DNA of 28,681 nt, from IMG/VR virus record IMGVR_UViG_2563366854_000003, positions 1 to 28,681 of that record; one strand, 5' to 3'. Under the pieces are notes generated by a model. The model worked only from the letters and a program-made list of their open reading frames with translations. It was not told the DNA's origin and made no database searches. Source of the stretch: a virus (lineage: Duplodnaviria > Heunggongvirae > Uroviricota > Caudoviricetes). Positions 22,236-22,525 of this stretch are shown here, one piece after another (position 1 is the stretch's first letter; each line of letters starts with the position of its first letter). The translations under genes were made by a program, and so were the position numbers.

Positions 22236-22324
22236 CCCGACCCCGGGGGGGTATCATCCGGCGTAAAAAACGATCGCTTTGGACACCGCGCCCCCTCTCA
22301 CGCAGAGAAAAAATTCCCGTTTCA

Positions 22325-22455
22325 GGGCAGTTAACATGTTAACTGGCTGCCCGGGCATTTTTGCGGTTTTTATCTTTATTATTCAGTTTGTTGTGCGGAA
22401 AAAATGTTAACAGGCTTTTTCAGCAAATGTTAACCAGGCAGCAGTTAACATTTGC
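22325..22455. promoter_or_regulatory. Cluster of five ATGTTAAC-core sites including an 18-bp perfect palindrome; candidate cos / terminase-binding region
   Basis: CAGTTAACATGTTAACTG perfect palindrome at 22328-22345; further copies AATGTTAACAGG (22403-22414), AATGTTAACCAGG (22426-22438) and CAGTTAACATTTG (22442-22454, inverted); between the HNH endonuclease and the terminase small subunit. Confidence 0.4.
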
Positions 22456-22525
22456 GGCATGAGACGCCGGGAAAAATGGGCTGAACCATACCCGGCTGAG
22501 TGCGTTCTGGACCCGGGAGGAGGCT

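Follow-up and report, generated by a model that had tools for sequence, protein, structure and literature searches.

Between the genes for an HNH endonuclease and the terminase small subunit (terS), a tailed phage genome carries an 18-bp palindrome and three further copies of the same motif, and it is probable, on comparative sequence evidence, that they form an array resembling the cosB of phage lambda, bound by a small terminase (TerS) of the helix-turn-helix (HTH) type and lying within a 3'-cos region. The genome is IMG/VR record IMGVR_UViG_2563366854_000003 (Caudoviricetes), of which positions 1 to 28,681 were analysed (the window, 28,681 nucleotides in full). An initial annotation of the window had proposed that the cluster could define the packaging site of the phage, with binding sites for the small terminase, or serve as a regulatory site for an adjacent ribbon-helix-helix (RHH) protein. 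The gene context that it gave, with HNH, terS and RHH genes, agrees with Pfam matches to HNH, Terminase_2 and DUF3950/RHH-like proteins, and the perfect palindrome and three additional motif copies, occurring in both orientations, were recovered both by direct reading and with a repeat finder.

The palindrome, CAGTTAACATGTTAACTG, occupies positions 22328-22345 and constitutes the proximal site. It contains two GTTAAC hexamers that start at +34 and +42 and together span +34 to +47, where numbers with a plus sign are counted from the predicted left end of the virion chromosome (see below). Distal site 1, AAATGTTAAC, is located on the plus strand at 22402-22411 (ATGTTAAC at 22404-22411, hexamer at +110) and distal site 2, with the same sequence AAATGTTAAC and strand, at 22425-22434 (ATGTTAAC at 22427-22434, hexamer at +133). 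Distal site 3 is an inverted copy, GTTAACATTT, which reads AAATGTTAAC on the minus strand, at 22444-22453 (ATGTTAAC at 22444-22451, hexamer at +148). Distal sites 2 and 3 provide the left and right arms of a perfect 12-nt inverted repeat, GCAAATGTTAAC(9 nt)GTTAACATTTGC, at 22423-22455, and the distal copies as a whole span +110 to +153, upstream from the start of terS at +230. These repeats are real and non-random. The window contains six copies of ATGTTAAC where 0.96 are expected, a number reached or exceeded in none of 100 shuffles, and five of the six fall within 122 bp (22330-22451); similarly, GTTAAC occurs 14 times against an expectation of 5.3, with five occurrences in the array. Moreover, the five ATGTTAAC copies show zero substitutions among 51 distinct close variants, in which all changes are confined to the spacers.

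The proximal and distal sites are separated by a spacer rich in T-tracts (22346-22401; 62 nt between hexamers, 61% A+T), which also holds the 3' arm of a weak hairpin and is possibly a bendable or IHF-type segment. An open reading frame of 24 amino acids, hydrophobic in character, extends from an ATG at 22336, within the palindrome, to a stop inside the next repeat (MLTGCPGIFAVFIFIIQFVVRKKC, 22336-22410). It was considered as a small gene and rejected: the 65% identical relative L085 keeps the frame with non-synonymous changes and the version in the locus L092 has just eight codons, so that the frame probably arose incidentally from the T-rich spacer.

The chromosome ends were located by homology to phages with mapped termini. 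For the induced Stx1 phage Lys8385Vzw, Zhang et al. (PMC7946995) give a 3'-cos assignment by PhageTerm with the cohesive sequence CGCCCCCCCT at the genome end. The record of this phage ends with ...GGACACCGCCCCCCCT and begins with CTCACGCAGAG... (in a longer stretch, CTCACGCAGAGAAAAAATTCCCGTTTCAGGGCAGTTAACATGTTAACTGG...); in the cos region it is about 96% identical to the window and it carries the same palindrome and repeats. The corresponding cosN of the window, with a predicted 10-nt 3' cohesive end, CGCGCCCCCT, that matches the cohesive sequence of Lys8385Vzw at nine of ten positions, lies at 22287-22296 (plus strand), with predicted nicks after 22296 in the top strand and ahead of 22287 in the bottom strand, so that the first base of the virion chromosome would be 22297. 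On this basis the palindrome is not expected to be the cut site, cosN lying 32 bp upstream of it. The proposal of a packaging site held for the interval 22240-22525, identified as a cos region by its homology to Lys8385Vzw, and the predicted cut falls inside these coordinates, away from the palindrome.

A second experimentally supported end comes from fEg-Aba01 and fLi-Aba02, two phages of Acinetobacter, for which 10-nt 3' ends, CGCCCCCCAT, were obtained with PhageTerm and a heat/cool restriction assay (PMC7354433). These phages are more remote from the window (TerL 52% identical, N-terminus of TerS 51%) and they end at a site homologous to its cosN, with 8/10 matches to its cos core; the fLi-Aba02 record ends with ...TTGGACACCGCCCCCCAT and starts with CGCACGCACAAAAAAAATTCCC.... 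The records of the Xanthomonas phages OP1 and DMF5-T1 also begin at the base homologous to the left end. The record of Burkholderia phage Bcep176 was found to start 10 nt upstream of the homologous base, with ten extra bases, CGCACGTTCC (L016, 1-10), preceding the left-end box described below; this extension fits a cohesive sequence unlike the CGC(C/G)CCCCC(A/C)T of the enterobacterial and Acinetobacter phages.

Two conserved boxes flank cosN. The left-end box, CTCACGCAGAGAAAAAATTCCC, comprises the first 22 bp of the predicted virion DNA (22297-22318, plus strand) including an A-tract, and it is kept in all relatives, even in the Xanthomonas phages with a different TerS. On the other side, a G-run box, CCCCGGGGGGGTATCATCC (22241-22259, plus strand), ends about 37-45 nt upstream of the right chromosome end. 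It occurs at the same relative position in all the listed relatives, and the records of HK97, Xanthomonas OP1 and Acinetobacter fLi-Aba02 have comparable G-runs 36-42 nt ahead of their ends. A possible role is that of a cosQ-like or termination element shared by HNH-assisted 3'-cos phages. Together with a TerL of the TerL_ATPase/TerL_nuclease (Terminase_1) type and an HNH gene directly upstream of cos and terS, these features identify the interval, by sequence comparison, as the place of cos in a lambdoid prophage of the HK97-type, HNH-assisted 3'-cos kind. The PPompW prophages of O157 strains (LC567822.1, L194, 746-2204) have an ISEc20 element of the IS110 family that abuts cos inside the G-run, at a position corresponding to about 22248 of the window; the lysis genes and the HNH gene between the Q-proximal tRNAs and cos are gone, and cosN, the repeats and terS are kept. 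Such prophages may be packageable only when the HNH protein is supplied in trans.

Relatives of this region were gathered from a phage collection, from IMG/VR and from a set of contigs with one genome per species. The contigs were searched with a profile built from an alignment of enterobacterial TerS sequences, since the window TerS alone, with search patterns drawn from its variable C-terminal half, matched nothing. All relatives have in common the G-run box about 40 nt before the end, a core GGACACCGC(C/G)CCCCC(A/C)T and a left-end box C.CACGCA.AGAAAAAATTCCC, and in those phages that encode an HTH-type TerS, GTTAA(C) sites follow downstream of the left-end box. The sites are kept in phages of Salmonella and other Enterobacterales, Pseudomonas, Burkholderia and Acinetobacter, and they vary in number, spacing and orientation. 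In 26 distinct cos-to-terS intervals from at least nine genera, GTTAA/TTAAC occurs 43 times in 2071 nt, and the remainder of these loci has it 137 times in 95110 nt; the frequencies are once per 48 nt and once per 694 nt, an approximately 14-fold enrichment. Conservation of the motif in related phages, a check named in the initial annotation, is observed: 24 of the 26 intervals have their first site beginning somewhere from +23 to +47, the two exceptions being L116, which has a single GTTAA near +70, and L092, which carries a different motif. The window itself has five sites from +34 to +153, between cosN and terS and at a conserved position, an arrangement of the cosB type.

In about 100 short-form loci (G/A)T(A/T)AACATGTTAAC is found at the same distance as the window palindrome and its right half is the start of terS itself, ATG TTA AC. 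Short forms were found in Salmonella FSL SP-016 and in Atlantibacter, Kluyvera, Enterobacter, Citrobacter, Kosakonia, Erwinia, Pantoea, Serratia and others. In Pseudomonas phage vB_Pae_U2 and in the Burkholderia phages Bcep176 and vB_E354 an inverted pair, TGTTAA-N5-TTAACA, surrounds the ATG of terS. Direct repeats occur as well, with three copies of GTTAAC spaced 13 bp apart in Pseudomonas phage IME307, three copies of AAGTTAAA at 11-13 bp in Acinetobacter fLi-Aba02, together with a TTAAC within terS, and four repeats resembling GTTAACCC in a Pantoea prophage.

The locus with a different motif, L092, is from IMG/VR. Its layout is that of the long form in the window, with HNH gene, cos, palindrome, A+T-rich spacer, distal repeats and a terS starting ATG CTG ACA, and every GTTAAC-type copy has been replaced: the palindrome is TATGTACATGTACATA and both distal copies read ATGTACAT. 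The site centres are at +37.5, +43.5, +110.5 and +132.5, as compared with +36.5, +44.5, +112.5 and +135.5 (plus +150.5) in the window, and the proximal and distal sites are separated by 61 nt, against 62 nt in the window, the two spacers being unrelated in sequence and that of L092 containing 75% A+T. Such a concerted change of all copies with retention of the geometry is what would be expected of a change in binding specificity and not of duplication debris. The switch has been seen at a single locus, since scans for further variants yielded L092 alone: a pattern scan of IMG/VR returned its own contig, all 76 loci from a metagenome scan had the GTTAAC palindrome, 79 of 80 relatives of the L092 TerS were short-form GTTAAC types, and DNA of the L092 type was not found in complete E. 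coli genomes.

A second line of evidence derives from codon usage where a site overlaps the beginning of terS. Each of the 19 distinct short forms has TTA as the leucine codon at this position, as does each of 79 additional loci from IMG/VR, and this codon is rare nearby, accounting for none of 104 leucine codons in terL and the portal gene of vB_Pae_U2 and for one of 41 in terL of Bcep176. In long forms, with the sites upstream of the start, the codon is CTG, CTA or TTG, except in fLi-Aba02 (L011), which has TTA and also a TTAAC site at that place. Retention of TTA suggests a constraint acting at the level of DNA. Thirdly, the phages with sites share a Terminase_2-type HTH domain at the N-terminus of TerS. 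The Xanthomonas phages OP1 and DMF5-T1 resemble them in TerL (same family, 49-59% identity), in having HNH genes and in the left-end box, and encode an unrelated TerS; no GTTAA sites were found in their cos regions. Given the concerted switch, the codon anomaly and the co-occurrence with one type of TerS, the sites appear to be read by a protein, most likely TerS. The TerS binding sites suggested in the initial annotation are supported to this extent, by these three observations and by the conserved position, and the binding itself we infer from sequence comparison.

Several points weigh against this reading. The chromosome end was located by homology, and the predicted cohesive sequence of the window differs from the mapped one at one of ten positions. 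The identity of the binder is argued from co-occurrence and from analogy with lambda, SPP1 and PaP3. The HTH domain of the L092 TerS differs at K24, R25, N35 and S44-G45-I46, and among these positions no clean specificity residue was found, other TerS proteins of the GTTAA type also varying at some of them; moreover, the HNH protein (56% identity) and TerL of L092 have diverged as well. No convincing IHF site was detected in the spacer, where the best match to WATCAANNNNTTR (22381-22393) has two mismatches. Finally, small terminases of the SF6/SPP1 type have shown mostly weak or non-specific binding in vitro (PMC9611059), and HK97 has its TerS site in another place, at +15 to +29, with recognition by a different mechanism that involves no HTH (PMC11331095).

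The main rival explanation, which we regard as unlikely, retains the sites as part of the packaging complex and has them read by TerL, the HNH protein or a host architectural protein instead of TerS. Their position adjoining cosN and the presence of an HNH gene upstream in almost all relatives would agree with it, as would the parallel divergence of HNH protein and TerL in L092. However, the Xanthomonas phages, which share the TerL family, the HNH gene and the left-end box, lack the sites and differ in having an unrelated TerS, and the sites persist in vB_Pae_U2, where no HNH gene lies directly upstream. Furthermore, the HTH domains of a TerS ring are multiple and flexibly tethered, and short repeats of varying number and orientation suit them (PMC9611059).

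That the repeats are non-functional debris, left by repeated duplication of an ancestral terS 5' end (ATG TTA AC...) when about 180 bp were inserted between the old and new starts, is considered very improbable. It is a reasonable thought in so far as ATGTTAAC is the terS start region of Salmonella FSL SP-016 and about 100 relatives, aligned with the right half of the window palindrome, and in the window 182 bp are added and terS begins at a new GTG CTG ACA. Debris would not be expected, however, to remain invariant in every copy through 51 variants while the spacers change, nor to be converted at every copy to a different motif within the same layout, as in L092. Repeats also occur in non-coding DNA upstream of the start in IME307 and in the Acinetobacter, Pantoea and Burkholderia phages, one copy in the window is inverted, and the rare TTA codon is retained in hosts of high GC content.

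We attach scarcely any weight to the possibility that the sites are operators for the DUF3950/RHH-like protein, or for another regulator, controlling terS or antisense transcription. Palindromic sites are typical of operators, the RHH-like gene is about 500 bp upstream, and on the minus strand (22433 to 22404) the repeats themselves make up a weak sigma-70-like match (TTAACA, 18 nt, TAACAT, with an upstream TG). This match points towards the HNH gene, and GTTAACAT resembles both promoter hexamers. Nevertheless, its score of 9/12 is at chance level (two such matches found against 1.4 expected), and it is relative to the chromosome end, not to any promoter, that the distance of the sites is constant. 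The regulatory site for the RHH protein that the initial annotation had offered as an alternative is disfavoured in particular, the RHH gene being detected only in the close E. coli lineage (L083-L086) and absent within about 1 kb in the other relatives, where the sites are conserved without it.

Equally remote is the explanation that the palindrome folds, as RNA or DNA, into a hairpin serving the HNH gene as an intrinsic terminator and that the other copies are incidental, since the hairpin GGGCAGUUA...UGGCUGCCC, which has a 9-bp stem, a 10-nt loop, a predicted free energy of -16.4 kcal/mol and, after a 5-nt gap, U-runs, is matched in stability by 19 of 200 shuffles (z-score -1.27) and drew no call in a terminator scan, while the L092 palindrome has no U-run, the short-form site runs into coding sequence and the three distal copies are left unexplained. 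A terminator hairpin may be a secondary property of the proximal site.

Returning to the array as a set of TerS binding sites, a tentative mechanism can be outlined. In small terminases, which form oligomeric rings, the HTH domains sit at the periphery (PMC9611059), and adjacent ones would be well matched by direct repeats 12-13 bp apart or by closely placed inverted hexamers. The N-terminal HTH domains of an oligomeric TerS would recognise the GTTAAC sites, and TerS bound at the conserved proximal site would hold TerL over cosN, about 40 bp upstream, with the aid of the HNH protein; gp74, the HNH protein of HK97, stimulates cos cleavage (PMC11331095). TerL would then introduce the staggered nicks and packaging would proceed rightward through terS. 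In the Stx-phage lineage we infer, in addition, a bending of the DNA and a cooperation of the distal sites, whereby the three distal copies would fold back across the A+T-rich spacer onto the same TerS assembly and stabilise it. Such folding would resemble that of R3-I1-R2-R1 in lambda with gpNu1 and IHF.

In a broader and considerably more speculative form, which we put forward as a possibility with the odds against it, the array would serve an SF6-like HTH TerS, operating in an HNH-assisted cos system, as a modular packaging-specificity cassette. The ancestral form would have been a single site fused to the terS start codon. The Stx-phage lineage would have expanded it to a bipartite five-site array of constant geometry, consisting of the proximal palindrome, a bendable spacer of 61-62 nt and distal sites 22-23 bp apart, and it would have been re-specified at least once, to ATGTACAT in L092. 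If this were correct, the array would decide which co-resident prophages a given terminase cross-packages, and a site overlapping the ribosome-binding and start region of terS might couple terminase binding to terS expression.

Comparison with characterised packaging systems places the array among known elements without identifying it with any of them. The cosB of lambda consists of R3-I1-R2-R1, read by gpNu1, and a specificity variant exists in phage 21. As in lambda, the window has several short repeats of mixed orientation within the first approximately 150 bp, between cosN and the small-terminase gene (PMC9611059). Both also have an A+T-rich or bendable segment between the cosN-proximal and the distal sites, and the lineage-specific re-specification seen between lambda and phage 21 has its likeness in ATGTACAT of L092 as against ATGTTAAC. 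Lambda differs, however, in its 12-nt 5' overhangs, the lack of an HNH partner, an established IHF site, unrelated site sequences and a winged-HTH TerS of the Nu1 type that is unrelated in sequence. The window array is not a member of the lambda Nu1/cosB family, since both the fold family of TerS and the chemistry of the ends are different.

HK97 resembles the window in the gene order HNH, cos, terS, terL, in the 10-nt 3' overhang (a predicted one in the window), in a TerL of the same Pfam family, in the G-run about 40 nt upstream of the end and in an A/T-tract just inside the left end. Its TerS, by contrast, is a non-HTH ring that threads DNA and reads one 15-bp site (PMC11331095), whereas the window has a Terminase_2-type HTH TerS and repeated hexamers from about +34, and the window TerL has no more than about 20% identity with proteins of the HK97 group, for instance the TerL of SfV. 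With SPP1 and SF6, whose G1P acts at pacL and pacR boxes, the window shares the N-terminal HTH of the Terminase_2 family and multiple contact points flanking the cut site, putative ones in the window (PMC9611059), but SPP1 and SF6 are headful pac phages and the window has predicted fixed cos ends and an HNH partner. Bacillus phage PM1 was set aside as a relative; its TerS N-terminus is similar and its gene layout is different. [quoted passage not shown]

The region is widespread. The interval is 94-99% identical to its counterpart in 93-94 phage records, nearly all of them Stx1a-, Stx2a- or Stx2c-converting phages (including BP-4795, 2851, 1717 and YYZ-2008), and the cos region (22240-22540) is present in 1277 of 5426 complete E. 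coli genomes, about a quarter, frequently in more than one copy and in up to seven copies per genome. Cross-packaging is therefore allowed, since co-resident prophages share one cos and one site specificity. The 10-nt cohesive sequence of the family is already published and, in the available text of both reports, it is accompanied by no mention of the downstream repeats or of a function for them (PMC7946995, PMC7354433); literature searches found no other paper describing this cos site. A terminase-binding array next to cos is an ordinary phage element that phage biology predicts, and this one had not been described previously.

The finding adds detail and overturns nothing. Knowledge of the sequences that a terminase reads would help in predicting the mobilisation or cross-packaging of prophages, defective ones among them, for example in enterohaemorrhagic E. 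coli, as well as which deletions or insertion sequences inactivate packaging and how packaging specificity diverges. Sequence-specific DNA recognition by HTH-type small terminases is poorly understood (PMC9611059), and short defined sites that vary across relatives, keep a conserved geometry, overlap the start of terS and include one natural switch would offer a tractable model for it.

The HNH endonuclease gene (21870-22235, plus strand; Pfam HNH PF01844, E 3.7e-8) encodes the terminase-associated accessory nuclease of HK97-type cos systems, and homologues are present directly upstream of cos in nearly all relatives. The terS gene (22526-23089, plus strand) begins with GTG after GGGAGGAGG, and its product matches Pfam Terminase_2 at the N-terminus (PF03592; residues 2-57 on profile positions 1-56, 36.1 bits against a cutoff of 26.1). 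Similarity over the full length of Terminase_2, which would include the oligomerisation core and the beta-barrel, is absent, with 56 of 141 profile positions matched. Alignments to the SF6 DNA-binding domain structures 2CMP, 4ZC3 and 3ZQP in the PDB are weak but consistent (E 0.2-0.8). The Lys8385Vzw record (L009, 185-793) annotates terS from a CTG lying 45 nt upstream of GTG 22526 (window 22481-22526); GTG 22526 is the likelier start, since it follows GGGAGGAGG and coincides in alignment with the point where all relatives begin M-L-T. The large terminase gene, terL (23086-24747, plus strand), encodes ATPase and nuclease domains (Pfam TerL_ATPase PF03354, E 2.1e-11; TerL_nuclease PF20441, E 1.5e-9); its product is 49-60% identical to the TerL proteins of fLi-Aba02, OP1 and DMF5-T1, whose records begin at the homologous end, and a protease-capsid fusion gene follows downstream.

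The DUF3950/RHH-like gene (21628-21828, minus strand) lies on the other side of the HNH gene, and a gene for a lipoprotein with a TonB_C domain is located at 21155-21496; both are between the lysis genes and the HNH gene and look like lineage-specific additions. Many Stx-type lambdoid phages have tRNA genes in their late-regulatory region, and here a tRNA-Met (CAT) and a tRNA-Arg (TCG) are encoded in it at 15312-15471. Finally, in the relative L085 (1201-1500), the terS frame stops after 99 codons owing to an apparent frameshift, and the cos region and five repeats are intact.

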